Positions 23,008-58,504 are shown, counted from the first letter of the stretch. The stretch is 64,000 bases of DNA from Bdellovibrionales bacterium (GCA_965261545.1 CBDHDF010000002.1:256001-320000), one strand, 5' to 3'. Notes: generated from the sequence alone by a model not told the origin. Numbers and translations are program-made.

Positions 23008-23551
23008 TCAGGATTTTGTGTTTTTGACTTTTTTACGCAGATTTTCCACGTTTTTGGAAGTGAGTCTAGTACATAGACAAATCGCTTCTACCTCAAACTC
23101 ATCCAAGTTTATACCCATCTGAAACAACTCCACAATGGTCTCATGGCGAAGCTTCCAGATACTACTCATTATAAGCAAAATCGGCCTAGAAAGCAAATTC
23201 CTGCCAACTCCACGGTAAAGGTTTATATCATGGATATTCAACAACTTACAACGAAAATTGAGGATATTCTTTCCAAATTTTTGTCTTAAAACGGGAGTGA
23301 GCCCATCCAGAGAATCTTGAAAATTCAGGGGGCCTCTCCAGTGTTTTTGTCGTCCGTGATAGACCAGTATGGGAATGACTGGGTAATTCCAACGATTGTA
23401 AACAAGAGTCTGGTACCTCAGAATCTGCTGGAGAACTTGAGAATCCTGATGACTTTTGTGTTCGAGCAGAAAAAAGAGACGTACCCGTTTTTTGGACCCC
23501 TTGACTTGAACTGAGAATAAAAGGTCAATGCGCCGCTCATTGCCCTCTTCA
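23008..23551 (-). pseudogene. Rpn type B copy, 5'-truncated, with an in-frame internal deletion removing the repeat region
   Basis: Near-identical to 29528-30538 but ...GINLDE joins directly to FEVEAICLC. Confidence 0.85.
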
Positions 23552-23769
23552 AATGATATTCGCCTCCACTCTGTCATCAAAGGTTATGGGGCGCCCCGCT
23601 CTTGGGGCGTCTTCGTGTTGTTATCTTGAAAAACTTCTTGGACGGAGTACTAGAAAGAACTTGGTGAGAGATTTCGGAAGGACGGGTGACCGTATGCAGC
23701 AAAAGATGGTAATTTTTTGCAAAATGGATAGGTATATTTTCTTGACATACTTTTTCATAGACGAATGGC

Positions 23770-26323: not shown

Positions 26324-28748
26324 TTGCCGCCAAAGAAAACCTCAGAAAAAAGAAAACAACAGTCTCAGTCCCATAATGCTCTATTCAATGAAACTTTCCT
26401 GAATGAGAGATATTGCCTAGACATTTTCCATCTTGTCTTGACGACACAGGAGTTTAAGCTCTTTAACTGGAAAACTCTCAAACCAGAAATAACTGTCTTT
26501 ACAGATGAAGAGGGCAATGAGCGGCGTATTGACCTTTTATTCTCAGTTGAAGTCAAGGGGTCCAAAAAGCGGGTGCGTCTTTTTTTTCTGCTCGAACACA
26601 AAAGTCATCAGGATTCTCAAGTGCTCCAGAAGATTCTGAGATACCAGACTCTTGTTTACAATCGTTGGAATTACCCAGTCATTCCCATCCTGGTCCAATG
26701 CCGTTTCCTTAAGCCACCACACCCCTCTGCCTCTGCGTTAAGCTATTTCTTTTAAAAGAACTCCCAGCCCTTTTGATAGACCTTTCATAGCTTCTTTTGA
26801 AGTGCCTCCTCTTCTCCATTGAAATCTTCATCAGCAACTTTATCTGCTTCCTAAATTTCTGATAGAGCCCCGCAACAAAAAGAGGGATGCTATCCATTAT
26901 GAAATCAAGAATCAGTTTAAAGTTAGGTTTTTTGTAGTCATTTTTCACCAACTGATTCACACTGTCTTCATCCTCATTTATGCTCATTTGAATCTTTGTA
27001 TAATTGAAGAGCCAAAAATAAGAATACAGCTCTTGCAATATTCCATTAAGGCTTGTTGAGTGCCACTGCTCCATTTTCATTGTCGATGTAAAATCACGAA
27101 ATGTCGTTTCTATTTCCCAACGACGAGAGTAAAGAGCAACCATATCCTTCTTGTCCAAGGAGCCATGCGGAAGATTAGTGGCCAAAACAGAGAACTCCCC
27201 AGTCTTTGGGTTTTTATACTTATAGAGATGAATGACCACCCCCTCAATAACCATTCGTGAATACCAACCTGGGCCATTAAATAAATTTACAATGGGGATA
27301 AAAGTAGAGCCTCGCTTACAACGCGCAATAAAGAAGTTACTGGCTTGAGCATGGGCCTAATAATCTCTGTAGATAAATAAAGCCTATCGTAGAGAGTTAT
27401 GCTATTACTCTCAAAACTACCTATCATTTGAATAGCATTGGCGATTTCGTTGAGGGCGGGAGAATAGCAAAGATTCTTTGTCACACCCGATAAAACGTCA
27501 TAAGCATGAGATAGATACATACGTAAGAAATGAGTTTCCATCTCATTTGGGCAAGGGTACCCACAATAACCCTCCTTTAAAAGATCTTTAGAGCGAGGAA
27601 GTGCTAATTGGTCGCCATCTATGGCATAGATATAAAAACCATGAAACGTTTTTCTCAATGGTTCGTAGTCTGTAATCAGAGATTCAAAGATATTTTTAAA
27701 AAATAGGTAAGAAATACTTTGACGTATCTTGCTGAGACTGCTTTTGACTGGCATGAGAAGCAGGTCACCAAAATGAGTCCATACCGTCTTAAGAGCGATT
27801 TGGTAGCCTTCGTAATTTGTTCCGGAAATAAGATAGATAATGGTAAAAAAGAAAATTTGAGGATTAAATTTTCGATTCCTTTTTTGTTTTTCTGGATCGA
27901 CAAGGTGCTCTGGCTTGAAGGAAGAATCAAGTTTTGGTAGAATAAAATGGTCATCTGTGACGCGAACTCGTCATTTGGGGGCTTTCGAGATCAATATTGG
28001 ATTGCATGTGACTTACTCCTTGGTTGAGGGTTGGGTGTAAAATAAAACAAGTCTTATTCTTGTCGATTTATCTAATAATTTCAAGAGATTTTTCTTAAGG
28101 AAACGGCATTGCATCCTGGTCTATCATGGACGACAAAAGCACTGGAGGGGTCCCCTGAATTTTCAAGATTCTCTGGATGGGCTCACTCCCGTTTTAAGAC
28201 AAAAATTTGGGAAGAATATCCTCAATTTTCGTTGTAAGTTGTTGAATATCCATGATATAAACCTTTACCGTGGAGTTGGCAGGAATTTGCTTTCTAGACC
28301 GATTTTGCTTATAATGAGTAGTATCTGGAAACTTCGCCATGAGACCATTGTGGAGCTGTTTCAGATGGGTACAAACTTAGGTGAGAAGGATCAACAGTTC
28401 CTTATTCAAAAAGCAGTGGATTATATCCACCGAAACGATTCAGATTTTACTTTAAATGTACTCAGTAAGATTGAAAAAGAAAGTATCGAGGAGGATCAAA
28501 GAGTTATGTCAGCATTGCAATGTTCTTTGGATGAAGCTGAGGAAAAGGGAATGAGAAAGGGCCTCAAAGAGGTCCGCGAAGAGGTCCGCGAAGAGGGTCG
28601 TAAAGAGGGCCTCAAAGAGGTCCGTAAAGAGATAGCATTACGAATGATTCAACATGGCTTTGAGGTAGAAGCGATTTGTCTATGTACTAGACTCACTTCC
28701 AAAGACGTGGAAAAGCTGCGTACAAAAGTCAAAAACACAAAATCCTGA
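26324..28748 (+). pseudogene. Rpn type B copy interrupted by IS4
   Basis: N-terminal part 26324-26695 and C-terminal part 28112-28748; tail repeats EVRE/EGRK rather than GIEK. Confidence 0.9.
26696..28111 (-). mobile_element. IS4-family element with broken transposase
   Basis: 18-bp IR caatgccgtttccttaag; 10-bp TSD catcctggtc; AIDGD, LYDRLY, YSRRWEIETTFR (YREK-like). Confidence 0.92.
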
Positions 28749-33484: not shown

Positions 33485-33865
33485 TTAAGTTATTTTTTGG
33501 GGAGATAGACCTTTTAAAACCCAACCAAATAAAGCCATTGAAGCAGGGATAGTGCCAATTATAGAAACAAGTACCCAGGAATGAACTTCATGTTTAAAAT
33601 AAATAATACATTCAATCAATATAAAGTATATTATATTAAAACAGATCAGAAACTTGAATGTTTTGTCAGCGTAATTTTCCCTAAGTTCCCTTTCTAATTT
33701 AATATCCTTAATCTTCTCCTGTCTCTTTTCATTTTTAAGAATACCCTTTTTAGTGTATTCATCAGGTTCAATGTTAGCTGATCTCTTATCAGTGATTTTA
33801 ATCTCATCTATTTTAGCGTTTGTTTTCGCATCAGAGATTCCTAAAGGTTTATTTTCATTGACCAT
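33485..33865 (-). CDS. Putative membrane toxin with two C-terminal TM helices, partner of the Panacea antitoxin
   Basis: Start overlaps the upstream stop (TAATG coupling); two hydrophobic C-terminal segments. Confidence 0.55.
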   Translation of the reverse strand: MVNENKPLGISDAKTNAKIDEIKITDKRSANIEPDEYTKKGILKNEKRQEKIKDIKLERELRENYADKTFKFLICFNIIYFILIECIIYFKHEVHSWVLVSIIGTIPASMALFGWVLKGLSPQKIT

Positions 33866-42199: not shown

Positions 42200-42799
42200 A
42201 TGAGTAAAGCAGAGAAAATAAAAACATATTCAAGCTTGTGGGAAGAATTGTGTGATTTACCAGAAAATGTTGTGGGTGAGATTTTTAACGATGAACTTGT
42301 GGTCTCTCCAAGACCGGCTCCCAAATACGCTGTTACTTCTTCTTCTCTTGGTGGTGAACTTGTAAATCCATTTCAAAAAGGTAAAAACGGGGGGCCAGGA
42401 GGTTGGTGGATTATTGATGAACCAGAGCTTCATCTCGAAAAACCTGTTCAAAAAAGAGAGAAGACCAATGTGATTGTACCTGACTTAGCAGGTTGGAAAA
42501 AAGATCGTCTCCCAAAGCTTCCAGAAACGGCTTATTTTGAGCTACCTCCAGACTGGGTTTGTGAGGTTTTGTCTCCATCAACAGCTTGTTATGACAGGGT
42601 TTCAAAGATGAGGATATATGCCATTAATGAAATCCCTTATTATTGGGTGATAGACCCCATCGGTAGAACTTTAGAAATTTTTGTTCTTCAAGATGAAACC
42701 TACCGAATGGAGATAGGTTTTACTGGAAGCGATGAGGTTTTAGCTCCGCCCTTTGAAGCGATCGGGTTAGATTTAGGGGCACTATGGGATTACGAATAA
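42200..42799 (+). CDS. Uma2-family endonuclease (second full copy)
   Basis: Highly similar to 28851-29450; RBS aggag. Confidence 0.9.
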   Translation: MSKAEKIKTYSSLWEELCDLPENVVGEIFNDELVVSPRPAPKYAVTSSSLGGELVNPFQKGKNGGPGGWWIIDEPELHLEKPVQKREKTNVIVPDLAGWKKDRLPKLPETAYFELPPDWVCEVLSPSTACYDRVSKMRIYAINEIPYYWVIDPIGRTLEIFVLQDETYRMEIGFTGSDEVLAPPFEAIGLDLGALWDYE

Positions 42800-42876
42800 G
42801 CCGTCATTTGCCTAGAATGTTACCCATGAGCAGCTTGCCTCTTTGGGTTCGTCGCTGTGTCGGGAAAGAGCTTTTC

Positions 42877-43947
42877 TCAGGATTTTGTGTTTTTGACTTT
42901 TTTACGCAGCTTTTCCACGTCTTTGGAAGTGAGTCTAGTACATAGACAAATCGCTTCTACCTCAAAGCCATGTTGAATCATTCGTAATGCCATCTCTTCG
43001 CGACCCTTCTCGATACCCTTCTCGATACCCTTCTCGATACCCTTCTCGATACCCTTCTCGATACCCTTCTCGATACCCTTCTCAAGACCCTTTTCGATAC
43101 CCTTTTCGATACCCTTCTCGATACCCTTCTTAAGGCCCTTTCTCATCCCCTTTTCCTCAGCTTCATCCAAAGAACATTGCAATGCTGACATAACTCTTTG
43201 ATCCTCCTCGATACTTTCTTTTTCAATCTTACTGAGTACATTTAAAGTAAAATCTGAATCGTTTCGGTGGATATAATCCACTGCTTTTTGAATAAGGAAC
43301 TGTTGATCCTTCTCACCTAAGTTTGTACCCATCTGAAACAGCTCCACAATGGTCTCATGGCGAAGTTTCCAGATACTACTCATTATAAGCAAAATCGGTC
43401 TAGAAAGCAAATTCCTGCCAACTCCACGGTAAAGGTTTATATCATGAATATTCAACAACTTACAACGAAAATTGAGGATATTCTTCCCAAATTTTTGTCT
43501 TAGAACGGGGGTGAGCCCATCCAGAGAATCTTGAAAATTCAGGGGGCCTCTCCAGTGTTTTTGGCGTCCGTGATAGACCAGTATGGGAATGACTGGATAG
43601 TTCCAGCGATTGTAAACAAGGGTCTGGTACCTCAGAATTTGTTGGAGCACTTGAGAATCTTGATGACTTTTGTGTTCGAGCAGAAAAAAAAGACGCACCC
43701 TTTTTTTGGACCCCTTGACTTGAACTGAGAATAAAAGGTCAATACGCCGTTCATTGCCCTCTTCATCTGTAAAGACAGTTATTTCTGGTTTGAGAGTTTT
43801 CCAGTTAAAGAGCTTAAACTCCTGTGTCGTCAAGACAAGACGGAAAATGTCTAGGCAATATCTCTCATTCAGGAAAGTTTCATTGAATAGAGCATTATGG
43901 GCCTGAGACTGTTGTTTTCTTTTTTCTGAGATTTTCTTTGGAGGCAA
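42877..43947 (-). CDS. Rpn type B, array copy 1 (10 repeats, 356 aa)
   Basis: Rpn motifs; repeats counted in the translation. Confidence 0.9.
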   Translation of the reverse strand: MPPKKISEKRKQQSQAHNALFNETFLNERYCLDIFRLVLTTQEFKLFNWKTLKPEITVFTDEEGNERRIDLLFSVQVKGSKKRVRLFFLLEHKSHQDSQVLQQILRYQTLVYNRWNYPVIPILVYHGRQKHWRGPLNFQDSLDGLTPVLRQKFGKNILNFRCKLLNIHDINLYRGVGRNLLSRPILLIMSSIWKLRHETIVELFQMGTNLGEKDQQFLIQKAVDYIHRNDSDFTLNVLSKIEKESIEEDQRVMSALQCSLDEAEEKGMRKGLKKGIEKGIEKGIEKGLEKGIEKGIEKGIEKGIEKGIEKGIEKGREEMALRMIQHGFEVEAICLCTRLTSKDVEKLRKKVKNTKS

Positions 43948-44597
43948 TGTCAGTCTTTCAAGTGAAGAGGGTTTTAGATGGGGCGGCTTAAGAAGATTAT
44001 GGACAAGTGTATGAGCAAGTGAGCGGAGTTATCTGTCCATAAATCATCAAGACAAGGTAAAAGGGGGTGGGTTCTCCGGTCAAGTCAGATCAAGTCAAAA
44101 ATTGGAAAGTCATCATTAACTATCATAAAACCGGAGAATTGATTATTCTTATCCTCCTCTCCGATATGGCTATCGCCGCCCTCTTCCGCTGTAATTGTAC
44201 CTGACTTAGCAGGTTGGAAAAAAGATCGTCTCCCAAAGCTTCCAGAAACGGCTTATTTTGAGCTACCTCCAGACTGGGTTTGTGAGGTTTTGTCTCCATC
44301 AACAGCTCGTTATGACAGGGTTTCAAAGATGAGGATATATGCCATTAATGAAATCCCTTATTATTGGGTGATAGACCCCATCGGTAGAACTTTAGAAATT
44401 TTTGTTCTTCAAGATGAAACCTACCGAATGGAGATAGGTTTTACTGGAAGCGATGAGGTTTTAGCTCCGCCCTTTGAAGCGATCGGGTTAGATTTAGGGG
44501 CACTATGGGATTACGAATAAGCCGTCATTTGCCTAGAATGTTACCCATGAGCAGCTTGCCTCTTTGGGTTCGTCGCTGTGTCGGGAAAGAGCTTTTC

Positions 44598-45680
44598 TCA
44601 GGATTTTATGTTTTTGACTTTTTTACGCAGCTTTTCCACGTCTTTGGAAGTGAGTCTAGTACATAGACAAATCGCTTCTACCTCAAAGCCATTTTGAATC
44701 ATTCGTAATGCCATCTCTTCACGACCCTTCTCGATACCCTTCTCGATACCCTTCTCGATACCCTTCTCGATACCCTTCTCGATACCCTTCTCGATACCCT
44801 TCTCAAGACCCTTTTCGATACCCTTTTCGATACCCTTCTCGATACCCTTCTCGATACCCTTCTTAAGGCCCTTTCTCATCCCCTTTTCCTCAGCTTCATC
44901 CAAAGAACATTGCAATGCTGACATAACTCTTTGATCCTCCTCGATACTTTCTTTTTCAATCTTACTGAGTACATTTAAAGTAAAATCTGGATCGTTTCGG
45001 TGGATATAATCCACCGCTTTTTGAATAAGGAACTTTTGATCCTTCTCATCCAAGTTTATACCCATCTGAAACAGCTCCACAATGGTCTCATGGCGAAGCC
45101 TCCAGATACTACTCATTATAAGCAAAATCGGCCTAGAAAGCAAATTCCTGCCAACTCCACGGTAAAGGTTTATATCATGAATATTCAACAACTTACAACG
45201 AAAATTGAGGATATTCTTCCCAAATTTTTGTCTTAGAACGGGGGTGAGCCCATCCAGAGAATCTTGAAAATTCAGGGGGCCTCTCCAGTGTTTTTGGCGT
45301 CCGTGATAGACCAGTATGGGAATGACTGGATAGTTCCAGCGATTGTAAACAAGGGTCTGGTACCTCAGAATTTGTTGGAGCACTTGAGAATCTTGATGAC
45401 TTTTGTGTTCGAGCAGAAAAAAAAGACGCACCCTTTTTTTGGACCCCTTGACTTGAACTGAGAATAAAAGGTCAATACGCCGTTCATTGCCCTCTTCATC
45501 TGTAAAGACAGTTATTTCTGGTTTGAGAGTTTTCCAGTTAAAGAGCTTAAACTCCTGTGTCGTCAAGACAAGACGGAAAATGTCTAGGCAATATCTCTCA
45601 TTCAGGAAAGTTTCATTGAATAGAGCATTATGGGCCTGAGACTGTTGTTTTCTTTTTTCTGAGATTTTCTTTGGAGGCAA
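44598..45680 (-). CDS. Rpn type B, array copy 2 (11 repeats, 360 aa)
   Basis: Rpn motifs; repeats counted in the translation. Confidence 0.9.
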   Translation of the reverse strand: MPPKKISEKRKQQSQAHNALFNETFLNERYCLDIFRLVLTTQEFKLFNWKTLKPEITVFTDEEGNERRIDLLFSVQVKGSKKRVRLFFLLEHKSHQDSQVLQQILRYQTLVYNRWNYPVIPILVYHGRQKHWRGPLNFQDSLDGLTPVLRQKFGKNILNFRCKLLNIHDINLYRGVGRNLLSRPILLIMSSIWRLRHETIVELFQMGINLDEKDQKFLIQKAVDYIHRNDPDFTLNVLSKIEKESIEEDQRVMSALQCSLDEAEEKGMRKGLKKGIEKGIEKGIEKGIEKGLEKGIEKGIEKGIEKGIEKGIEKGIEKGREEMALRMIQNGFEVEAICLCTRLTSKDVEKLRKKVKNIKS

Positions 45681-46330
45681 TGTCAGTCTTTCAAGTGAAG
45701 AGGGTTTTAGATGGGGCGGCTTAAGAAGATTATGGACAAGTGTATGAGCAAGTGAGCGGAGTTATCTGTCCATAAATCATCAAGACAAGGTAAAAGGGGG
45801 TGGGTTCTCCGGTCAAGTCAGATCAAGTCAAAAATTGGAAAGTCATCATTAACTATCATAAAACCGGAGAATTGATTATTCTTATCCTCCTCTCCGATAT
45901 GGCTATCGCCGCCCTCTTCCGCTGTAATTGTACCTGACTTAGCAGGTTGGAAAAAAGATCGTCTCCCAAAGCTTCCAGAAACGGCTTATTTTGAGCTACC
46001 TCCAGACTGGGTTTGTGAGGTTTTGTCTCCATCAACAGCTCGTTATGACAGGGTTTCAAAGATGAGGATATATGCCATTAATGAAATCCCTTATTATTGG
46101 GTGATAGACCCCATCGGTAGAACTTTAGAAATTTTTGTTCTTCAAGATGAAACCTACCGAATGGAGATAGGTTTTACTGGAAGCGATGAGGTTTTAGCTC
46201 CGCCCTTTGAAGCGATCGGGTTAGATTTAGGGGCACTATGGGATTACGAATAAGCCGTCATTTGCCTAGAATGTTACCCATGAGCAGCTTGCCTCTTTGG
46301 GTTCGTCGCTGTGTCGGGAAAGAGCTTTTC

Positions 46331-47389
46331 TCAGGATTTTATGTTTTTGACTTTTTTACGCAGCTTTTCCACGTCTTTGGAAGTGAGTCTAGTACATAGA
46401 CAAATCGCTTCTACCTCAAAGCCATTTTGAATCATTCGTAATGCCATCTCTTCACGACCCTTCTCGATACCCTTCTCGATACCCTTCTCGATACCCTTCT
46501 CGATACCCTTCTCAAGACCCTTTTCGATACCCTTTTCGATACCCTTCTCGATACCCTTCTCGATACCCTTCTTAAGGCCCTTTCTCATCCCCTTTTCCTC
46601 AGCTTCATCCAAAGAACATTGCAATGCTGACATAACTCTTTGATCCTCCTCGATACTTTCTTTTTCAATCTTACTGAGTACATTTAAAGTAAAATCTGGA
46701 TCGTTTCGGTGGATATAATCCACCGCTTTTTGAATAAGGAACTTTTGATCCTTCTCATCCAAGTTTATACCCATCTGAAACAGCTCCACAATGGTCTCAT
46801 GGCGAAGCCTCCAGATACTACTCATTATAAGCAAAATCGGCCTAGAAAGCAAATTCCTGCCAACTCCACGGTAAAGGTTTATATCATGAATATTCAACAA
46901 CTTACAACGAAAATTGAGGATATTCTTCCCAAATTTTTGTCTTAGAACGGGGGTGAGCCCATCCAGAGAATCTTGAAAATTCAGGGGGCCTCTCCAGTGT
47001 TTTTGGCGTCCGTGATAGACCAGTATGGGAATGACTGGATAGTTCCAGCGATTGTAAACAAGGGTCTGGTACCTCAGAATTTGTTGGAGCACTTGAGAAT
47101 CTTGATGACTTTTGTGTTCGAGCAGAAAAAAAAGACGCACCCTTTTTTTGGACCCCTTGACTTGAACTGAGAATAAAAGGTCAATACGCCGTTCATTGCC
47201 CTCTTCATCTGTAAAGACAGTTATTTCTGGTTTGAGAGTTTTCCAGTTAAAGAGCTTAAACTCCTGTGTCGTCAAGACAAGACGGAAAATGTCTAGGCAA
47301 TATCTCTCATTCAGGAAAGTTTCATTGAATAGAGCATTATGGGCCTGAGACTGTTGTTTTCTTTTTTCTGAGATTTTCTTTGGAGGCAA
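46331..47389 (-). CDS. Rpn type B, array copy 3 (9 repeats, 352 aa)
   Basis: Rpn motifs; repeats counted in the translation. Confidence 0.9.
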   Translation of the reverse strand: MPPKKISEKRKQQSQAHNALFNETFLNERYCLDIFRLVLTTQEFKLFNWKTLKPEITVFTDEEGNERRIDLLFSVQVKGSKKRVRLFFLLEHKSHQDSQVLQQILRYQTLVYNRWNYPVIPILVYHGRQKHWRGPLNFQDSLDGLTPVLRQKFGKNILNFRCKLLNIHDINLYRGVGRNLLSRPILLIMSSIWRLRHETIVELFQMGINLDEKDQKFLIQKAVDYIHRNDPDFTLNVLSKIEKESIEEDQRVMSALQCSLDEAEEKGMRKGLKKGIEKGIEKGIEKGIEKGLEKGIEKGIEKGIEKGIEKGREEMALRMIQNGFEVEAICLCTRLTSKDVEKLRKKVKNIKS

Positions 47390-48039
47390 TGTCAGTCTTT
47401 CAAGTGAAGAGGGTTTTAGATGGGGCGGCTTAAGAAGATTATGGACAAGTGTATGAGCAAGTGAGCGGAGTTATCTGTCCATAAATCATCAAGACAAGGT
47501 AAAAGGGGGTGGGTTCTCCGGTCAAGTCAGATCAAGTCAAAAATTGGAAAGTCATCATTAACTATCATAAAACCGGATAATTGATTATTCTTATCCTCCT
47601 CTCCGATATGGCTATCGCCGCCCTCTTCCGCTGTAATTGTACCTGACTTAGCAGGTTGGAAAAAAGATCGTCTCCCAAAGCTTCCAGAAACGGCTTATTT
47701 TGAGCTACCTCCAGACTGGGTTTGTGAGGTTTTGTCTCCATCAACAGCTCGTTATGACAGGGTTTCAAAGATGAGGATATATGCCATTAATGAAATCCCT
47801 TATTATTGGGTGATAGACCCCATCGGTAGAACTTTAGAAATTTTTGTTCTTCAAGATGAAACCTACCGAATGGAGATAGGTTTTACTGGAAGCGATGAGG
47901 TTTTAGCTCCGCCCTTTGAAGCGATCGGGTTAGATTTAGGGGCACTATGGGATTACGAATAAGCCGTCATTTGCCTAGAATGTTACCCATGAGCAGCTTG
48001 CCTCTTTGGGTTCGTCGCTGTGTCGGGAAAGAGCTTTTC

Positions 48040-49062
48040 TCAGGATTTTATGTTTTTGACTTTTTTACGCAGCTTTTCCACGTCTTTGGAAGTGAGTCTA
48101 GTACATAGACAAATCGCTTCTACCTCAAAGCCATTTTGAATCATTCGTAATGCCATCTCTTCACGACCCTTCTCGATACCCTTCTCGATACCCTTCTCGA
48201 TACCCTTCTCGATACCCTTCTCGATACCCTTCTCGATACCCTTCTTAAGGCCCTTTCTCATCCCCTTTTCCTCAGCTTCATCCAAAGAACATTGCAATGC
48301 TGACATAACTCTTTGATCCTCCTCGATACTTTCTTTTTCAATCTTACTGAGTACATTTAAAGTAAAATCTGGATCGTTTCGGTGGATATAATCCACCGCT
48401 TTTTGAATAAGGAACTTTTGATCCTTCTCATCCAAGTTTATACCCATCTGAAACAGCTCCACAATGGTCTCATGGCGAAGTTTCCAGATACTACTCATTA
48501 TAAGCAAAATCGGTCTAGAAAGCAAATTCCTGCCAACTCCACGGTAAAGGTTTATATCATGAATATTCAACAACTTACAACGAAAATTGAGGATATTCTT
48601 CCCAAATTTTTGTCTTAGAACGGGGGTGAGCCCATCCAGAGAATCTTGAAAATTCAGGGGGCCTCTCCAGTGTTTTTGGCGTCCGTGATAGACCAGTATG
48701 GGAATGACTGGATAGTTCCAGCGATTGTAAACAAGGGTCTGGTACCTCAGAATTTGTTGGAGCACTTGAGAATCTTGATGACTTTTGTGTTCGAGCAGAA
48801 AAAAAAGACGCACCCTTTTTTTGGACCCCTTGACTTGAACTGAGAATAAAAGGTCAATACGCCGTTCATTGCCCTCTTCATCTGTAAAGACAGTTATTTC
48901 TGGTTTGAGAGTTTTCCAGTTAAAGAGCTTAAACTCCTGTGTCGTCAAGACAAGACGGAAAATGTCTAGGCAATATCTCTCATTCAGGAAAGTTTCATTG
49001 AATAGAGCATTATGGGCCTGAGACTGTTGTTTTCTTTTTTCTGAGATTTTCTTTGGAGGCAA
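48040..49062 (-). CDS. Rpn type B, array copy 4 (6 repeats, 340 aa)
   Basis: Rpn motifs; repeats counted in the translation. Confidence 0.9.
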   Translation of the reverse strand: MPPKKISEKRKQQSQAHNALFNETFLNERYCLDIFRLVLTTQEFKLFNWKTLKPEITVFTDEEGNERRIDLLFSVQVKGSKKRVRLFFLLEHKSHQDSQVLQQILRYQTLVYNRWNYPVIPILVYHGRQKHWRGPLNFQDSLDGLTPVLRQKFGKNILNFRCKLLNIHDINLYRGVGRNLLSRPILLIMSSIWKLRHETIVELFQMGINLDEKDQKFLIQKAVDYIHRNDPDFTLNVLSKIEKESIEEDQRVMSALQCSLDEAEEKGMRKGLKKGIEKGIEKGIEKGIEKGIEKGIEKGREEMALRMIQNGFEVEAICLCTRLTSKDVEKLRKKVKNIKS

Positions 49063-49622
49063 TGTCAGTCTTTCAAGTGAAGAGGGTTTTAGATGGGGCG
49101 GCTTAAGAAGATTATGGACAAGTGTATGAGCAAGTGAGCGGAGTTATCTGTCCATAAATCATCAAGACAAGGTAAAAGGGGGTGGGTTCTCCGGTCAAGT
49201 CAGATCAAGTCAAAAATTGGAAAGTCATCATTAACTATCATAAAACCGGAGAATTGATTATTCTTATCCTCCTCTCCGATATGGCTATCGCCGCCCTCTT
49301 CCGCTGTGATTGTACCTGACTTAGCAGGTTGGAAAAAAGATCGTCTCCCAAAGCTTCCAGAAACGGCTTATTTTGAGCTACCTCCAGACTGGGTTTGTGA
49401 GGTTTTGTCTCCATCAACAGCTCGTTATGACAGGGTTTCAAAGATGAGGATATATGCCATTAATGAAATCCCTTATTATTGGGTGATAGACCCCATCGGT
49501 AGAACTTTAGAAATTTTTGTTCTTCAAGATGAAAGTAAATCATCGAGGAACCCCGTCTTTCAATAATTTTGAGATGTAATAGACTGAATCCATAACCACT
49601 AACTACTTACGAGGAGATAGAT

Positions 49623-50021
49623 ATGGATTTAGAGATTTTACGCAAGAAATTGAGCACATATCGTGGCCCAAGCGGCCGCATACGAGGAGCCAGTGATGAA
49701 CTCCTTTATGAGTTGCTGACGGCCTGGGAGAATTGGTCGGGTCCGATGAGCGGCTTCTATAAATCTCTTGGAGTCAGTAGGAATGGTATGGCCTCAATGA
49801 TAGGCAAGGCAAAGAAGCTAAAAAGAGAGGGCCATTTTCCGGAGTCAGAGTTTAAAGAGATCAAGATGGAGCCAAGTTCTTCGCTCCCAGGGGTGAGTTC
49901 TCCCTCCCATTCAGGCATCATTTTGAGATGGTCAAGGGGGCAAGTCATCCGTTTTCCCCATGTGGATGGGCTGATTGAATTTCTAAATAAGACAGATAAG
50001 ACAGAAAAGAAGGCCTCATGA
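49623..50021 (+). CDS. IS66 accessory protein (TnpA position)
   Basis: First ORF of the IS; RBS gaggag; overlaps tnpB by ATGA. Confidence 0.65.
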   Translation: MDLEILRKKLSTYRGPSGRIRGASDELLYELLTAWENWSGPMSGFYKSLGVSRNGMASMIGKAKKLKREGHFPESEFKEIKMEPSSSLPGVSSPSHSGIILRWSRGQVIRFPHVDGLIEFLNKTDKTEKKAS

Positions 50022-50410
50022 TAGCTTTGAACCGCAGGACCAAAATATTCGTCTGTAAGGAGCCCACAGATATGAGGGCTTCTTATGATTCTTTATTTCA
50101 TCGAGCCAAGACAGTTTTAGACAAGGACCCTTTTTCGGGTCATTTATTTTTGTTTGTCAACCGCCGTCGTACGTCGTGCAAGTGCCTGTACTATGATGGC
50201 ACAGGATTGGTAATTTTATCCAAGCGTCTTGAGCAGGGAACATTTTCTAGGATCAATCCTTTTCATAGTAAAGAAATTGTATTAACAGAGGCCGAGTTTG
50301 GTTTATTTTTTGAGGGAGCGAATTTAGAAAAAAGGTTTATAGAAAGTCCTTTGGAGATAAAAAAAGTTGCTAAAAAAATATTCCCAATGAGTCAAGAGTT
50401 GTCACTTTAA
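50018..50410 (+). CDS. tnpB: IS66 accessory protein TnpB
   Basis: PTDMRASYDSL, DPFSGHLFLFVNRRR, YDGTG, KRLEQG. Confidence 0.9.
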   Translation: MIALNRRTKIFVCKEPTDMRASYDSLFHRAKTVLDKDPFSGHLFLFVNRRRTSCKCLYYDGTGLVILSKRLEQGTFSRINPFHSKEIVLTEAEFGLFFEGANLEKRFIESPLEIKKVAKKIFPMSQELSL

Positions 50411-50416
50411 AAATAT

Positions 50417-52069
50417 TTGTTTATCCTTTTATTTATGAGCCAAGAAGATCTTTTCAAAGTTGTTCCAAAGACTCGATTTGACTTGATAAAAAAAGGTGAA
50501 GTTGTTTACCTTTTCCAAGAAGCCGAGCACACCATCCGCAAGCTGCAAAAAGAGATCAAAGACTTAAGAAATCTCCATGGAGAACTGAAGCAAAAAACTT
50601 TCTTGGTGGATGAGCAATATATTCTTTTAAAGAACAAGCTTTTTGGCAAAAGCTCAGAAAAGGAATCTCCAGATAATAAGAAAGATTCATCCCACCCAGC
50701 TTCGTTTCAAAATTCTACTTCTGACAAGGATGAAAAAAGAAAAAAGCGTATCCAGCTCCCCTCGGAAAGATATCCCAATGCCCCCGTTGTTGAACAAGAG
50801 GTGGAGCTTCAAGAACCTCCCAAATGCACTTGCTGTGGGGCCGAGATGAAGGACTCAGGTCTTACGGAAGCCAGTGAGTACCTCACCGTGGTTCCTGCCA
50901 AATATCTTATTATTAGACAAAAACGCCACAAATATAACTGTGGCCGTTGTCACGGGAGTCTTAAAACCGCTTCTACCCCCCCTCGAATCAAACCAAAGAG
51001 TTCTTACAGCGATGAAATGATGTTGGATGTGTCTTTGACCAAATACTGTGACCTCATTCCCATAGAGCGCTATGGGGCCATAGCTGGAAGAGCTGGGCTC
51101 GAAGGCTTACCTCCCCAAAGTCTCATAGAGTTGACCCACCATGTGGCCGACTTTACAAAAGGAGCTTACGATAAGCTCAAAGAAGAGATTCAAAGCAGCC
51201 AGGTTCTTCATGCCGATGAAACCCCTCACAAAATGCTTGAGAGAAATGGGGGGAAGAGTTGGTATTTATGGGGATTTTCCAATACAAAGACGAGTTATTT
51301 TGAAATACACAACACTCGCTCTGGGGATGTGTCTTCAAAGATGATAAAGAACTCCAAGTGTGAATATTTGGTCAGTGATGTTTTTTCTGGCTACAGCAAA
51401 ACAGTGAGAGAAGTGAATCAATACCGGAAAGACAGAGAAAATAAAGAAGAATTTAAGAAACTTTACAATGTGTACTGCAATGCCCATGCGAGGAGAAAGT
51501 TCAGGGAGGCCGTGGTGGCGAACTTGAACAAAGAGCCAGATCCATCCCAGTGTGCCCAATATTTTGTGAATATCTATGGAAAGATTTATCGTCTGGCAAA
51601 AATAGCCAAGAATGGGGAGCAAGGCTGTGATAAATTCCTGCGTGCTCAAAGGCTTATGCTCTGTCTATTTGAGAAGATGAAGGTGCGGGCCATGGAAGAT
51701 ATGGGGGGCTACTCTTCCAAAAGCTCTATGGGCAAGGCCATGGGATATCTTCTCAGAAACTATAAAGGCTTGACTTTGTTTGCTCACCACCACGGCTTGC
51801 CCATTGACAATAATTGCCAAGAACGACAGCTTCGCAGTCCTGTGGTGGGGCGCAAGACATGGTATGGAACGCACTCTAAAAGAGGGGCTGAAACAGCCTC
51901 CATATTGTTCTCCTTGGTAGAGTCATGCAAACTCAATCAGGTCAATCCAAGGGAGTATTTCAAAAAACTGGTCCAAGATATCCATCAAGGCAAAAATCCA
52001 TATACACCCTCTCAATACAAGATCTTGTATCCTCCCAACGAAAATAAAGACGATTTATTGCATATGTGA
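50417..52069 (+). CDS. tnpC: IS66 transposase TnpC
   Basis: LFGKSSEK, CTCCG and CGRC zinc motifs, HADET, CNAHARRKF, IDNNCQERQLR, SLVESCKLN. Confidence 0.92.
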   Translation: MFILLFMSQEDLFKVVPKTRFDLIKKGEVVYLFQEAEHTIRKLQKEIKDLRNLHGELKQKTFLVDEQYILLKNKLFGKSSEKESPDNKKDSSHPASFQNSTSDKDEKRKKRIQLPSERYPNAPVVEQEVELQEPPKCTCCGAEMKDSGLTEASEYLTVVPAKYLIIRQKRHKYNCGRCHGSLKTASTPPRIKPKSSYSDEMMLDVSLTKYCDLIPIERYGAIAGRAGLEGLPPQSLIELTHHVADFTKGAYDKLKEEIQSSQVLHADETPHKMLERNGGKSWYLWGFSNTKTSYFEIHNTRSGDVSSKMIKNSKCEYLVSDVFSGYSKTVREVNQYRKDRENKEEFKKLYNVYCNAHARRKFREAVVANLNKEPDPSQCAQYFVNIYGKIYRLAKIAKNGEQGCDKFLRAQRLMLCLFEKMKVRAMEDMGGYSSKSSMGKAMGYLLRNYKGLTLFAHHHGLPIDNNCQERQLRSPVVGRKTWYGTHSKRGAETASILFSLVESCKLNQVNPREYFKKLVQDIHQGKNPYTPSQYKILYPPNENKDDLLHM

Positions 52070-52077
52070 CAAACTTT

Positions 52078-52374
52078 TTATCCATTTGGCTTGACGACTT
52101 CCCATACAGCTAGCCTTAAATGCCCCTTAACTTTGTGTGCAACGCCAACAGCATCAAGTAATGCAAGCCGTTCTAGAGGAATACTATCAATATTTTGGTC
52201 GTCTTCAAATTCTAAGTGAATGACCTTTTTGTGAAGAAACTCCTTCATCTCTGGTCGAATATTTTTGTCAATAGTAACAACCAAAAAATTAAAATGATTG
52301 GCCTTTGTCTTCATAGGCCAAAACCCAAGACTTCGAAGTCTGCTCAATTTCTTGTGTAAAATCTCTAAATCCAT
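52078..52374 (-). CDS. IS66 passenger ORF sharing its first 11 codons with the TnpA-position ORF
   Basis: MDLEILHKKLS vs MDLEILRKKLS; RBS gaggagg. Confidence 0.55.
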   Translation of the reverse strand: MDLEILHKKLSRLRSLGFWPMKTKANHFNFLVVTIDKNIRPEMKEFLHKKVIHLEFEDDQNIDSIPLERLALLDAVGVAHKVKGHLRLAVWEVVKPNG

Positions 52375-52641
52375 ATTTACCTCCTCGTAAGTGGTTATGG
52401 ATTCAGTCTATTACACCTTCAAATTATTGAAAGACGGGGTTCCTGGATGATTTACAGATGAAACCTACCGAATGGAGATAGGTTTTACTGGAAGCGATGA
52501 GGTTTTAGCTCCGCCCTTTGAAGCGATCGGGTTAGATTTAGGGGCACTATGGGATTACGAATAAGCCGTCATTTGCCTAGAATGTTACCCATGAGCAGCT
52601 TGCCTCTTTGGGTTCGTCGCTGTGTCGGGAAAGAGCTTTTC

Positions 52642-53676
52642 TCAGGATTTTATGTTTTTGACTTTTTTACGCAGCTTTTCCACGTCTTTGGAAGTGAGTC
52701 TAGTACATAGACAAATCGCTTCTACCTCAAAGCCATTTTGAATCATTCGTAATGCCATCTCTTCACGACCCTTCTCGAGACCCTTCTCGATACCCTTCTC
52801 GATACCCTTCTCGATACCCTTCTCGATACCCTTCTCGATACCCTTCTCGATACCCTTCTTAAGGCCCTTTCTCATCCCCTTTTCCTCAGCTTCATCCAAA
52901 GAACATTGCAATGCTGACATAACTCTTTGATCCTCCTCGATACTTTCTTTTTCAATCTTACTGAGTACATTTAAAGTAAAATCTGGATCGTTTCGGTGGA
53001 TATAATCCACCGCTTTTTGAATAAGGAACTTTTGATCCTTCTCATCCAAGTTTATACCCATCTGAAACAGCTCCACAATGGTCTCATGGCGAAGTTTCCA
53101 GATACTACTCATTATAAGCAAAATCGGTCTAGAAAGCAAATTCCTGCCAACTCCACGGTAAAGGTTTATATCATGAATATTCAACAACTTACAACGAAAA
53201 TTGAGGATATTCTTCCCAAATTTTTGTCTTAGAACGGGGGTGAGCCCATCCAGAGAATCTTGAAAATTCAGGGGGCCTCTCCAGTGTTTTTGGCGTCCGT
53301 GATAGACCAGTATGGGAATGACTGGATAGTTCCAGCGATTGTAAACAAGGGTCTGGTACCTCAGAATTTGTTGGAGCACTTGAGAATCTTGATGACTTTT
53401 GTGTTCGAGCAGAAAAAAAAGACGCACCCTTTTTTTGGACCCCTTGACTTGAACTGAGAATAAAAGGTCAATACGCCGTTCATTGCCCTCTTCATCTGTA
53501 AAGACAGTTATTTCTGGTTTGAGAGTTTTCCAGTTAAAGAGCTTAAACTCCTGTGTCGTCAAGACAAGACGGAAAATGTCTAGGCAATATCTCTCATTCA
53601 GGAAAGTTTCATTGAATAGAGCATTATGGGCCTGAGACTGTTGTTTTCTTTTTTCTGAGATTTTCTTTGGAGGCAA
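52642..53676 (-). CDS. Rpn type B, array copy 5 (7 repeats, 344 aa)
   Basis: Rpn motifs; repeats counted in the translation. Confidence 0.9.
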   Translation of the reverse strand: MPPKKISEKRKQQSQAHNALFNETFLNERYCLDIFRLVLTTQEFKLFNWKTLKPEITVFTDEEGNERRIDLLFSVQVKGSKKRVRLFFLLEHKSHQDSQVLQQILRYQTLVYNRWNYPVIPILVYHGRQKHWRGPLNFQDSLDGLTPVLRQKFGKNILNFRCKLLNIHDINLYRGVGRNLLSRPILLIMSSIWKLRHETIVELFQMGINLDEKDQKFLIQKAVDYIHRNDPDFTLNVLSKIEKESIEEDQRVMSALQCSLDEAEEKGMRKGLKKGIEKGIEKGIEKGIEKGIEKGIEKGLEKGREEMALRMIQNGFEVEAICLCTRLTSKDVEKLRKKVKNIKS

Positions 53677-54326
53677 TGTCAGTCTTTCAAGTGAAGAGGG
53701 TTTTAGATGGGGCGGCTTAAGAAGATTATGGACAAGTGTATGAGCAAGTGAGCGGAGTTATCTGTCCATAAATCATCAAGACAAGGTAAAAGGGGGTGGG
53801 TTCTCCGGTCAAGTCAGATCAAGTCAAAAATTGGAAAGTCATCATTAACTATCATAAAACCGGAGAATTGATTATTCTTATCCTCCTCTCCGATATGGCT
53901 ATCGCCGCCCTCTTCCGCTGTAATTGTACCTGACTTAGCAGGTTGGAAAAAAGATCGTCTCCCAAAGCTTCCAGAAACGGCTTATTTTGAGCTACCTCCA
54001 GACTGGGTTTGTGAGGTTTTGTCTCCATCAACAGCTCGTTATGACAGGGTTTCAAAGATGAGGATATATGCCATTAATGAAATCCCTTATTATTGGGTGA
54101 TAGACCCCATCGGTAGAACTTTAGAAATTTTTGTTCTTCAAGATGAAACCTACCGAATGGAGATAGGTTTTACTGGAAGCGATGAGGTTTTAGCTCCGCC
54201 CTTTGAAGCGATCGGGTTAGATTTAGGGGCACTATGGGATTACGAATAAGCCGTCATTTGCCTAGAATGTTACCCATGAGCAGCTTGCCTCTTTGGGTTC
54301 GTCGCTGTGTCGGGAAAGAGCTTTTC

Positions 54327-55313
54327 TCAGGATTTTATGTTTTTGACTTTTTTACGCAGCTTTTCCACGTCTTTGGAAGTGAGTCTAGTACATAGACAAA
54401 TCGCTTCTACCTCAAAGCCATTTTGAATCATTCGTAATGCCATCTCTTCACGACCCTTCTCGATACCCTTCTCGATACCCTTCTCGATACCCTTCTTAAG
54501 GCCCTTTCTCATCCCCTTTTCCTCAGCTTCATCCAAAGAACATTGCAATGCTGACATAACTCTTTGATCCTCCTCGATACTTTCTTTTTCAATCTTACTG
54601 AGTACATTTAAAGTAAAATCTGGATCGTTTCGGTGGATATAATCCACCGCTTTTTGAATAAGGAACTTTTGATCCTTCTCATCCAAGTTTATACCCATCT
54701 GAAACAGCTCCACAATGGTCTCATGGCGAAGCCTCCAGATACTACTCATTATAAGCAAAATCGGCCTAGAAAGCAAATTCCTGCCAACTCCACGGTAAAG
54801 GTTTATATCATGAATATTCAACAACTTACAACGAAAATTGAGGATATTCTTCCCAAATTTTTGTCTTAGAACGGGGGTGAGCCCATCCAGAGAATCTTGA
54901 AAATTCAGGGGGCCTCTCCAGTGTTTTTGGCGTCCGTGATAGACCAGTATGGGAATGACTGGATAGTTCCAGCGATTGTAAACAAGGGTCTGGTACCTCA
55001 GAATTTGTTGGAGCACTTGAGAATCTTGATGACTTTTGTGTTCGAGCAGAAAAAAAAGACGCATCCTTTTTTTGGACCCCTTGACTTGAACTGAGAATAA
55101 AAGGTCAATACGCCGTTCATTGCCCTCTTCATCTGTAAAGACAGTTATTTCTGGTTTGAGAGTTTTCCAGTTAAAGAGCTTAAACTCCTGTGTCGTCAAG
55201 ACAAGACGGAAAATGTCTAGGCAATATCTCTCATTCAGGAAAGTTTCATTGAATAGAGCATTATGGGCCTGAGACTGTTGTTTTCTTTTTTCTGAGATTT
55301 TCTTTGGAGGCAA
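54327..55313 (-). CDS. Rpn type B, array copy 6 (3 repeats, 328 aa)
   Basis: Rpn motifs; repeats counted in the translation. Confidence 0.9.
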   Translation of the reverse strand: MPPKKISEKRKQQSQAHNALFNETFLNERYCLDIFRLVLTTQEFKLFNWKTLKPEITVFTDEEGNERRIDLLFSVQVKGSKKRMRLFFLLEHKSHQDSQVLQQILRYQTLVYNRWNYPVIPILVYHGRQKHWRGPLNFQDSLDGLTPVLRQKFGKNILNFRCKLLNIHDINLYRGVGRNLLSRPILLIMSSIWRLRHETIVELFQMGINLDEKDQKFLIQKAVDYIHRNDPDFTLNVLSKIEKESIEEDQRVMSALQCSLDEAEEKGMRKGLKKGIEKGIEKGIEKGREEMALRMIQNGFEVEAICLCTRLTSKDVEKLRKKVKNIKS

Positions 55314-55951
55314 TGTCAGTCTTTCAAGTGAAGAGGGTTTTAGATGGGGCGGCTTAAGAAGATTATGGACAAGTGAGCGGAGTTATCTGTCCATAAATCA
55401 TCAAGACAAGGTAAAAGGGGGTGGGTTCTCCGGTCAAGTCAGATCAAGTCAAAAATTGGAAAGTCATCATTAACTATCATAAAACCGGAGAATTGATTAT
55501 TCTTATCCTCCTCTCCGATATGGCTATCGCCGCCCTCTTCCGCTGTGATTGTACCTGACTTAGCAGGTTGGAAAAAAGATCGTCTCCCAAAGCTTCCAGA
55601 AACGGCTTATTTTGAGCTACCTCCAGACTGGGTTTGTGAGGTTTTGTCTCCATCAACAGCTCGTTATGACAGGGTTTCAAAGATGAGGATATATGCCATT
55701 AATGAAATCCCTTATTATTGGGTGATAGACCCCATCGGTAGAACTTTAGAAATTTTTGTTCTTCAAGATGAAACCTACCGAATGGAGATAGGTTTTACTG
55801 GAAGCGATGAGGTTTTAGCTCCGCCCTTTGAAGCGATCGGGTTAGATTTAGGGGCACTATGGGATTACGAATAAGCCGTCATTTGCCTAGAATGTTACCC
55901 ATGAGCAGCTTGCCTCTTTGGGTTCGTCGCTGTGTCGGGAAAGAGCTTTTC

Positions 55952-56998
55952 TCAGGATTTTATGTTTTTGACTTTTTTACGCAGCTTTTCCACGTCTTTG
56001 GAAGTGAGTCTAGTACATAGACAAATCGCTTCTACCTCAAAGCCATTTTGAATCATTCGTAATGCCATCTCTTCACGACCCTTCTCGATACCCTTCTCGA
56101 TACCCTTCTCGATACCCTTCTCGATACCCTTCTCAAGACCCTTTTCGATACCCTTCTCGATACCCTTCTCGATACCCTTCTTAAGGCCCTTTCTCATCCC
56201 CTTTTCCTCAGCTTCATCCAAAGAACATTGCAATGCTGACATAACTCTTTGATCCTCCTCGATACTTTCTTTTTCAATCTTACTGAGTACATTTAAAGTA
56301 AAATCTGGATCGTTTCGGTGGATATAATCCACCGCTTTTTGAATAAGGAACTTTTGATCCTTCTCATCCAAGTTTATACCCATCTGAAACAACTCCACAA
56401 TGGTCTCATGGCGAAGCTTCCAGATACTACTCATTATAAGCAAAATCGGCCTAGAAAGCAAATTCCTGCCAACTCCACGGTAAAGGTTTATATCATGAAT
56501 ATTCAACAACTTACAACGAAAATTGAGGATATTCTTCCCAAATTTTTGTCTTAGAACGGGGGTGAGCCCATCCAGAGAATCTTGAAAATTCAGGGGGCCT
56601 CTCCAGTGTTTTTGGCGTCCGTGATAGACCAGTATGGGAATGACTGGATAGTTCCAGCGATTGTAAACAAGGGTCTGGTACCTCAGAATTTGTTGGAGCA
56701 CTTGAGAATCCTGATGACTTTTGTGTTCGAGCAGAAAAAAAAGACGCACCCTTTTTTTGGACCCCTTGACTTGAACTGAGAATAAAAGGTCAATACGCCG
56801 TTCATTGCCCTCTTCATCTGTAAAGACAGTTATTTCTGGTTTGAGAGTTTTCCAGTTAAAGAGCTTAAACTCCTGTGTCGTCAAGACAAGACGGAAAATG
56901 TCTAGGCAATATCTCTCATTCAGGAAAGTTTCATTGAATAGAGCATTATGGGCCTGAGACTGTTGTTTTCTTTTTTCTGAGATTTTCTTTGGAGGCAA
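55952..56998 (-). CDS. Rpn type B, array copy 7 (8 repeats, 348 aa)
   Basis: Rpn motifs; repeats counted in the translation. Confidence 0.9.
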   Translation of the reverse strand: MPPKKISEKRKQQSQAHNALFNETFLNERYCLDIFRLVLTTQEFKLFNWKTLKPEITVFTDEEGNERRIDLLFSVQVKGSKKRVRLFFLLEHKSHQDSQVLQQILRYQTLVYNRWNYPVIPILVYHGRQKHWRGPLNFQDSLDGLTPVLRQKFGKNILNFRCKLLNIHDINLYRGVGRNLLSRPILLIMSSIWKLRHETIVELFQMGINLDEKDQKFLIQKAVDYIHRNDPDFTLNVLSKIEKESIEEDQRVMSALQCSLDEAEEKGMRKGLKKGIEKGIEKGIEKGLEKGIEKGIEKGIEKGIEKGREEMALRMIQNGFEVEAICLCTRLTSKDVEKLRKKVKNIKS

Positions 56999-57220
56999 TG
57001 TCAGTCTTTCAAGTGAAGAGGGTTTTAGATGGGGCGGCTTAAGAAGATTATGGACAAGTGTATGAGCAAGTGAGCGGAGTTATCTGTCCATAAATCATCA
57101 AGACAAGATAAAAGGGGGTGGGTTCTCCGGTCAAGTCAGATCAAGTCAAAAATTGGAAAGTCATCATTAACTATCATAAAACCGGAGAATTGATTATTCT
57201 TATCCTCCTCTCCGATATGG

Positions 57221-58504
57221 CTATCGCCGCCCTCTTCCGCCATTGCTATCATCGTCCTCGCCATCCCGATTGTCCTCGCTATCCTCTTCGGTCATGGTTA
57301 TCGCCCATCCCCCATTGCCACTATCATCCTCGTCATGACTATCTTCCTCGTCGGTGATAATTCGTGGTCTTCGCCACCACCACCATCGATTATCACTATT
57401 ATCATTATCATCGTCATCTAGGAATCTTCCAAAATACTTTTGCCAGATAATTTGTGGGTTTTGCTGCCTCTTTTCAGTGCGTTTGATTCTGGCTCTTCGT
57501 CTGTGTTTTGGTTTTGGTTTTTGTTTGTCCAGACGTTTTCTTTTTTCTTCCTCGGCTTTTGCTTTGGCTTGAGCTCGGGCTCTTGCCTCCCCATATTCTT
57601 CAAATTCCTCGGCCCCATATTTGTTGCTTCGGAGAAGCCATGGGGGGGTGTAGTAGGGGGGAATTTCTTTATCGTAGAGGGGGAATTTTGGAAGTCGATG
57701 TGGTGGGTCGAAGTATTTCTTAACGATCTTGTTCCACAGGCTCGCAAGACAAACGAGAGAGCAAAATGTGGGAGCCAATATGGGGAAGTAGGCTTCAGTG
57801 AGAAAGAGGGAGGCCGTTAATATGAGGAGGAGTAACCATATAAAGCTTAGGTAGATCCATATATTTGTTATGTCTGTGATCGTGGGGACCCGGTGACGCC
57901 AAAAACAATACCAAATGTACACATAGGCGGGGATTCCCAAGGGAATGGCCGCGACCACAAAAACAAAGCCCGGGAGAGCTGTGCCTAGGAAGGAGGGATA
58001 CAAAAGGGAAGTCACCAAGGGAATGGCAGGTATGACAATATACCAAATGGTGACCTTGTGCCTATAATAGCCTTTCAACCGGGGGCCAATGAAAATCAGA
58101 TGCAAAAGGCAAAGGAGGGAGAAGGCTGAGGTCAAGTAAACATTTTTAAAGAAGGTGTGAAAGGGGATGATGAAGAGAGCGACTGGTAGGAGGGCATGGG
58201 TAGTAATGATTTCAAAGCTCATAAGAGCATAGGAAAAAAACCTGATTTTTTGAGATAAGAAGACCAGGGTGATTATTTCATAAACAATGAGTATTTGTAT
58301 AAATTCTGGGAGGTTGTGTTTAAGTATGAAGCTAAAATCTTGATGGGATTGACCTGACTGGACCCACCAGAGTTCAAGGAGGTGACCTAAGATAAAGCAC
58401 ATGTAGAGAATTTGGCTGAGTTTCCAGCCCCATTCAACCCTCTCTCTTCTCAGGCGAGGAGAAAGCGGAAGGTGCCTTTTGGGTATGGGAGGTTTTTCAA
58501 GCAA
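57221..58504 (-). CDS. Multi-pass membrane protein with a basic then acidic low-complexity tail; function unknown
   Basis: About 8 hydrophobic segments; K/R-rich then D/E-rich C-terminus; start uncertain. Confidence 0.65.
   Translation of the reverse strand: MLEKPPIPKRHLPLSPRLRRERVEWGWKLSQILYMCFILGHLLELWWVQSGQSHQDFSFILKHNLPEFIQILIVYEIITLVFLSQKIRFFSYALMSFEIITTHALLPVALFIIPFHTFFKNVYLTSAFSLLCLLHLIFIGPRLKGYYRHKVTIWYIVIPAIPLVTSLLYPSFLGTALPGFVFVVAAIPLGIPAYVYIWYCFWRHRVPTITDITNIWIYLSFIWLLLLILTASLFLTEAYFPILAPTFCSLVCLASLWNKIVKKYFDPPHRLPKFPLYDKEIPPYYTPPWLLRSNKYGAEEFEEYGEARARAQAKAKAEEEKRKRLDKQKPKPKHRRRARIKRTEKRQQNPQIIWQKYFGRFLDDDDNDNSDNRWWWWRRPRIITDEEDSHDEDDSGNGGWAITMTEEDSEDNRDGEDDDSNGGRGRR

Follow-up and report, generated by a model that had tools for sequence, protein, structure and literature searches.

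The closest described relatives of the locus reported here are RpnA-E and RpnP2 of Escherichia coli, PF04754-family nucleases whose genes carry an internal Shine-Dalgarno sequence and Met codon, followed by 4-aa repeats that begin some residues after this Met (8-20 residues reported), with RpnS as the internally started product (PMC10327210; PMC10400941; PDB 7TH0). These proteins have a long helix and a small helical bundle, the genes lack defined element ends, arrays arise by tandem duplication, and stand-alone RpnS genes occur in relatives. The same features, with the structure known as a model, recur in a tandem array of seven rpn genes within a 64,000-nucleotide stretch of a Bdellovibrionales bacterium (G000:C2:256001-320000, hereafter the window, in which positions are counted). 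Unlike RpnA, with which they share ∼20% identity, the array proteins have Asn for D11, Lys for Q84 and a TTG start. They also differ from the E. coli systems in that seven near-identical copies are neighbours, that the predicted RpnS proteins of copies 2-7 differ in the repeat alone, and that they are known from sequence only.

Head-to-tail rpn copies formed by direct segment duplication have also been described in Parabacteroides sp. Marseille (PMC10400941, legend to Fig. S1B); that legend gives no per-copy repeat numbers, and a similar length ladder there is possible. Published evidence for repeat specificity consists of a single +1 variant of RpnC, in which one extra repeat abolishes neutralisation (PMC10327210). 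Repeat variation has been proposed to prevent inhibition in trans among multiple rpn copies, which may target different phages (Koonin 2023; PMC10400984). The literature found to be relevant to such a ladder comprises Zhong 2023, Koonin 2023 and Kingston 2017, and in the open papers, supplement figures excluded, no within-array length ladder or overdispersion test was found. The system type, its arrays, repeat-number specificity and the multi-copy repertoire are already published (Zhong 2023; Koonin 2023), and no new mechanism is involved here. The array is a real, unusually clean example of a known system. Its copies 2-7 form a natural test set of six predicted antitoxins, from which a full repeat-number matrix could be built.

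The seven array genes contain, in order, 10, 11, 9, 6, 7, 3 and 8 units of the G(I/L)EK repeat, and a dispersed intact copy at 29528 contains 5. Recounting gave exactly the repeat numbers and protein lengths (Table 1) listed in an initial annotation made from the sequence alone, and self-comparison with unit alignment returned the same array limits. Every length difference among the window's intact rpn genes amounts to whole 12-bp units. The nuclease part, described in the initial annotation as almost invariant, indeed shows 0-4 amino-acid-changing sites in the array copies relative to copy 4. Outside the repeat, units 2-7 differ by 1-6 substitutions per ∼1.6 kb, yet they lie 1-8 repeat units apart. 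Such small numbers of substitutions beside such large repeat differences imply that the repeat changes far faster than point mutations accumulate. When the four DNA types of the 12-bp unit are written a-d (Table 1), the alleles are seen to differ by gained or lost runs, several of them longer than one unit. The predicted RpnS proteins of copies 2-7 have the same start and tail with 3, 6, 7, 8, 9 or 11 repeats between, and the corresponding nucleases differ at one or two residues.

Unit 1 stands apart, with 10-15 substitutions relative to the other units; of the 10 sites private to it, 7 agree with the 29528 copy. This pattern suggests that unit 1 is a mosaic with a 29528-type copy, produced by conversion. 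The 29528 copy itself is separated from the array by a synonymous divergence (dS) of 0.19, which marks it as an older paralogue outside the array's amplification. An inverted repeat lies 5′ of every array rpn (43990-44040 and matching places in each unit). In unit 6 it has lost a 12-bp direct repeat, and copies in a second array of the genome, described below, have gained 6 bp, so slippage affects non-coding repeats too.

The seven lengths are best accounted for, with a probability of roughly 0.6, by amplification and the neutral hypermutation, through slippage and recombination, of a 12-bp repeat that is almost pure. A single duplication with breakpoints inside two neighbouring genes would have founded the array, which may then have expanded by unequal recombination. 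Each added repeat would extend the long helix by roughly a turn, and neutralisation between copies of different length would be poor, as a by-product rather than a selected cause. The length differences may still keep the copies functionally apart. Amplification with 12-bp slippage, as the initial annotation had it, agrees with the six repeated junctions and with the whole-unit gains and losses. In E. coli O157, variable-number tandem repeat loci undergo 4.4e-5 to 1.8e-3 mutations per generation, steps of one unit and of several units being about equally common (PMC3777172). Rates of this type suffice to randomise the repeat.

The all-different pattern is then most likely a chance outcome, with a probability of about 0.02-0.08. 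Independent draws within the observed range yield seven distinct values out of seven with a probability of 0.076 (uniform) or 0.084 (normal), and eight out of eight with 0.019-0.022. In neutral genealogy simulations the all-distinct probability was 0 to 0.08 when the range was fixed at 7-9 and reached at most 0.17 without that condition. All these values concern a set chosen after the fact because its pattern looked striking. A simulation of this kind had been proposed in the initial annotation: eight distinct lengths did prove unlikely (about 0.02), and the pattern was not replicated in the genome's other sets, where 14 of 15 intact copies were distinct (13.3 expected, p = 0.45), as were 22 of 25 overall (p = 0.18). 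Genome G041 together with one further genome gave p = 0.58.

An independent test drew on 142 loci from six copy-rich related genomes (G362 contributing 30 of 42 matches and G316 30 of 48). Copies were grouped by eye on shared anchor motifs, which kept 103 in 12 sets; the other 39 loci were truncated or broken, belonged to sets of one or two, or had no anchors. No deficit of equal lengths was found among the 103 paralogues, which showed 57 tied pairs against 57.5 expected and 64 distinct values against 64.0. The first 87 of them had given 48 ties against 48.2, and within-array pairs of genome G360 gave 3 ties in 32 against 2.5. The null was a uniform draw given the range, with kinship ignored; kinship would raise the number of expected ties and could thereby mask a small deficit. 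As judged from these sequences, repeat number does not appear visibly overdispersed in the Rpn family within genomes. This result bears on the question of repeat diversification raised by Zhong and Koonin: selection for differing paralogue lengths is not evident, and in contrast to the proposal of Koonin 2023 (PMC10400984), the test finds no shortage of equal lengths among paralogues. Neutral slippage, which the initial annotation had offered as its alternative, is favoured because paralogues in relatives tie at the chance rate; the selected repertoire of eight lengths that it had preferred rests on a post hoc p of ∼0.02-0.08 and is not echoed in the relatives.

Several observations weigh against a neutral history. 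Taken by itself, the window set has a low neutral probability (0.076 for seven copies, 0.019 for eight), and pooling it with the genome's other sets leaves p = 0.03 (intact) or 0.015 (all). Among the 103 copies of the relatives, 0 of 609 pairs share a repeat sequence, and in this genome's family 1 of 105 does. Equal lengths are not over-represented in close pairs, a finding compatible with neutrality only if the repeat is saturated. In a toy model that forbids both the deletion and the alteration of unique copies, the all-distinct probability was 0.09-0.89, against 0.007-0.022 under neutrality.

The toy model and the lack of shared repeat sequences in relatives would fit a form of addiction, a possible though unlikely explanation in which RpnL, the full-length toxin, is neutralised solely by an RpnS with a matching helix. 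A unique copy could then not be lost or altered without freeing its toxin, whereas redundant copies would drift or disappear, ratcheting the array to all-unique. Duplication would free one copy's helix to change, after which both copies would be addictive and the array could only grow or persist. Uniqueness would apply at the level of helix sequence, so that a pure repeat yields a length ladder and mixed repeats yield no identical helices. The RpnC result mentioned above is in line with such matching, and there is a precedent in restriction-modification systems, which cannot secure their own retention when they share a specificity (PMC3874152, citing Kusano 1995 and Sadykov 2003); in Rpn, specificity would reside in a protein helix rather than in a DNA site. 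Array size is perhaps changing, as the junction depth in run X4 (below) suggests a much shorter array. If addiction did operate, it would explain how rpn arrays persist against recombinational collapse. The absence of a tie deficit in the 103 paralogues speaks against it, and uniqueness may be a default, given that an unrelated amplified nuclease family of the same genome, Hjc-like, has no identical repeat sequence among 16 copies either. Blocking deletion alone barely raises the all-distinct probability (0.02-0.05; the first such model gave ≤0.125 with small samples). Moreover, strains of one species differ in repeat number (PMC10327210), and the one pair sharing a repeat sequence (C2:785182 and C5:13185) is intact, lies in an exact 2.3-kb segment duplication and has identical RpnS. 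Toxin-dead copies are also common, the nuclease part being open in 15 of the genome's 23 PF04754 matches. A distinctly less probable proposal, also made by Koonin, is a phage-driven repertoire in which a different phage factor or antitoxin mimic would be sensed or resisted at each length, with selection preserving the full ladder. In its favour, RpnP2 makes E. coli resistant to T-even phages (PMC10327210), the nuclease is under strong purifying selection, neighbouring genes are of Uma2/PDC-S03-like, SocA/Panacea antitoxin-domain and Rhs types, and PF04754 is expanded in a few genera, being present in 32 of 390 genomes of the class. Against this stand the lack of overdispersion in relatives, the many broken copies and the absence of direct evidence for phage defence here. 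A tblastn search of the RpnS region against 50,697 phage records gave no match, a weak result with the low-complexity filter on.

An assembly artefact, with one or two real copies of mixed repeat lengths laid out as a tandem array, is extremely improbable. Five public runs contain the stretch as contigs, four of them from one sample that is possibly the source. In run X1 a contig crosses the novel unit junction with 122 and 34 letters on either side, at a depth of 24.5, where the unique flank has 2.0-2.2; a piece beside the junction in X3 has a depth of 25.8 against 3.0-3.8. Contig depth is not a copy number, and the X1 and X3 values support a junction present in several copies. The X4 junction, with a depth of 4.0, is close to the single-copy depth of 3.5 and the ancestral junction variant alone is present, a weak hint that the array is much shorter there; array size may thus differ between populations. 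The depth check proposed in the initial annotation, made here from contigs, agreed with a multi-copy junction in X1 and X3 and hinted otherwise in X4. The order of the lengths rests on the assembly, as none of the run contigs reaches across the array, and the runs are only possibly from the source sample. Unit-specific substitutions, an IS66 insertion unique within the array with its target duplication, and a 920-kb contig all argue for a genuine array, as do the similar arrays in G360.

The assignment of the genes to Rpn/YhgA with an internal RpnS, made in the initial annotation, is upheld as a prediction. The rpn copy tested matches PF04754 (Transposase_31) with 83 bits against a cut-off of 21 over residues 16-211. 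TIGR01784 gives 47.1 bits (E 2.6e-12, residues 19-331), under its whole-protein cut-off of 52.1, a near miss with a model built on other clades. All eight intact copies in the window carry GAGGAGG, a rather long spacing of 11 bases and then an in-frame ATG. This start, Met253, aligns with Met244 of RpnA, the repeats begin at residue 15 of the predicted RpnS, and a similar internal ribosome site occurs in 18 of 20 relative loci examined; codon-level conservation around the start is weak evidence. RpnL would accordingly be the full-length toxin and RpnS an antitoxin translated from Met253. A predicted structure (pLDDT, a per-residue confidence score, 92; alignment of 74 sequences) has one helix at residues 255-309 and short helices at 314-321 and 325-339. 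Its tail superposes on RpnA-S (7TH0) over 46 of 46 residues with a root-mean-square deviation (rmsd) of 1.4 Å (Z 5.9, rank 9 among helix-turn-helix folds). Residues 17-168 resemble NucS 2vld (Z 6.8, rmsd 2.8, 102 aa) as well as Can2, McrC and SdaI, which would be consistent with a PD-(D/E)XK core fold, although the scores are middling. Foldseek reached E 9e-3 at best, with no match at E 0.001 and restriction-like nucleases in all top rows. A PDB sequence search with the protein found no match, and BLASTP of the predicted RpnS against RpnA-S gave no alignment. Stand-alone RpnS-type genes lie 3′ of rpn at loci L035 and L039 of relatives, and a truncated one at L050; the L035 gene differs in repeat number from its upstream rpn.

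D70 and E91, equivalent to D63 and E82 of RpnA, are invariant in the 74 aligned homologues. The ratio of non-synonymous to synonymous divergence (dN/dS) of the nuclease part is 0.03-0.07 against eight non-array copies of the genome and 0.07-0.10 against six G041 copies, values that indicate strong purifying selection. Two kinds of evidence count against the assignment: the fold Z-scores all lie below 8, and the array proteins have Asn18 at the position of RpnA D11 and Lys at that of Q84, where D11A and Q84K inactivate RpnA and D11A removes all its phenotypes (PMC5350276). Most sequences in the alignment have Lys at the Q84 position, and His-Asn is found again in several subclades. The Asn weakens the case for activity like that of RpnA and leaves family identity untouched. 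The array genes are very likely RpnL/RpnS toxin-antitoxin modules, as sequence and model indicate, and nuclease activity of their products is presumed from sequence. That the proteins are inactive as nuclease or toxin, and the array passively amplified DNA, is very unlikely. Besides the Asn, a TTG start with a weak ribosome site and the richness of the genome in repeats would accord with inactivity, whereas the invariant acidic residues, the recurrence of His-Asn and the low dN/dS point to maintained function. In this genome all 20 complete 5′ ends begin the full-length protein with TTG, where G041 uses ATG; a TTG start could lower toxin output. An insertion sequence (ISNCY-like) reading of rpn was rejected: array breakpoints lie inside neighbouring genes, and the flanks of dispersed copies differ and, by inspection, end at varying points.

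The amplified unit of 1.6-1.7 kb comprises rpn together with the 3′ half of a Uma2 gene and the final 20 bp of a 427-aa open reading frame (ORF). The left breakpoint, 42469, falls inside the intact Uma2 gene, and units 2-7 have its 3′ half alone. All six genomic occurrences of the novel junction fall within the array, in two variants (4 + 2), and no microhomology was seen at it by inspection. An IS66-family element sits in the Uma2 remnant of unit 5, flanked by an 8-bp target duplication (49527-49534 and 52456-52463). The ribosome site and opening codons of its first ORF lie within its inverted repeats of ∼120 bp; because these start signals are carried in the repeat, the right end opens an inward-reading ORF of 98 aa (52078-52374). 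The genome holds two full IS66 copies and one partial copy. A promoter scan of the last unit found one site against 2.8 expected by chance. The 427-aa ORF has no Pfam or NCBIfam match, and the best ESM Atlas score, 0.75, is at most a lead; its product is hydrophobic, with a low-complexity tail that is acidic and basic.

Table 1. Coordinates of the array, its genes and related features (window positions unless another genome is named; repeat alleles in unit types a-d)
Feature	Position	Strand	Repeat units	Basis or remark
Tandem array, seven head-to-tail units	42469..57240			self-comparison, unit alignment
Unit 1	42469-44189			
Unit 2	44190-45922			
Unit 3	45923-47631			
Unit 4	47632-49304			
Unit 5	49305-53918			holds IS66
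Unit 6	53919-55543			
Unit 7	55544-57240			
Uma2-family nuclease gene, intact, 199 aa	42200..42799	+		PF05685 E 4e-25; PADLOC PDC-S03 E 7e-20
rpn copy 1, 356 aa	42877..43947	-	10 (43006-43125), abbcaaaaaa	predicted RpnS 43191-42877, 104 aa
rpn copy 2, 360 aa	44598..45680	-	11 (44727-44858), aabbcaaaaaa	predicted RpnS from 44924, 108 aa
rpn copy 3, 352 aa	46331..47389	-	9 (46460-46567), aabbcaaaa	predicted RpnS from 46633, 100 aa
rpn copy 4, 340 aa	48040..49062	-	6 (48169-48240), aaaaaa	predicted RpnS from 48306 (Met253), 88 aa
IS66-family element (132-aa ORF, tnpB, tnpC), 2921 bp	49535..52455	+		PF05717, PF03050
rpn copy 5, 344 aa	52642..53676	-	7 (52771-52854), aaaaaad	predicted RpnS from 52920, 92 aa
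rpn copy 6, 328 aa	54327..55313	-	3 (54456-54491), aaa	predicted RpnS from 54557, 76 aa
rpn copy 7, 348 aa	55952..56998	-	8 (56081-56176), aabcaaaa	predicted RpnS from 56242, 96 aa
427-aa ORF	57221..58504	-		right breakpoint 57240 in its last codons
Dispersed intact rpn, 336 aa	29528-30538	-	5, abcaa	adjoins own intact Uma2 gene (28851-29450)
Broken rpn	26324..28748	+		split by 1.4-kb DDE-transposase element (∼26696-28112); RpnS part still open
rpn remnant, internally deleted	23008..23580	-		without repeat helix
Tandem rpn runs of G360	C7:761696-771811, C6:101687-107823 and others			loci L055-L078

Repeats of ≥500 bp and ≥97% identity make up about 40% of the genome. The closest named relatives of the protein come from Bdellovibrionales metagenome-assembled genomes (up to 83%), and in a protein search of 40 related genomes four matched, all distantly. 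G360 contains 24 rpn copies that are 92-100% identical, with tandem runs of 6, 4, 3, 3 and 3, and two or three tail types are shuffled against the repeat region. The second, larger array of the present genome (C2:342-390 kb; G000:C2:342000-401500, partly L196) is riddled with insertion elements. Its rpn copies are GREE-rich, with 5, 6, 8, 4, 10, 5 and 7 total units, and it includes 18 copies of the Hjc-like nuclease (247-347 aa) with variable N-terminal 7-/11-aa coiled-coil repeats; a DUF3782-like label for this partner gene was dropped, as Pfam gave Hjc. The G360 arrays and the second array resemble the window array in near-identical nuclease, hypervariable repeat and tandem layout; in contrast to it, their repeat units are mixed and equal lengths occur several times inside arrays.

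Elsewhere in the window, genes at 2534-3511 and 10215-10673 belong to a second Rpn family, PF12784, which has 24 matches in the genome. The PF12784 genes have repeat numbers of 3-14 and a candidate internal ribosome site before a Met at about residue 217. At 33485-34377 lies a gene with a SocA/Panacea antitoxin domain, overlapped by a 126-aa partner that matches no Pfam family. A large Rhs protein with an Ig-like N-terminus is encoded at 58868-63955, and an Rhs core fragment occurs at 24830-26137.

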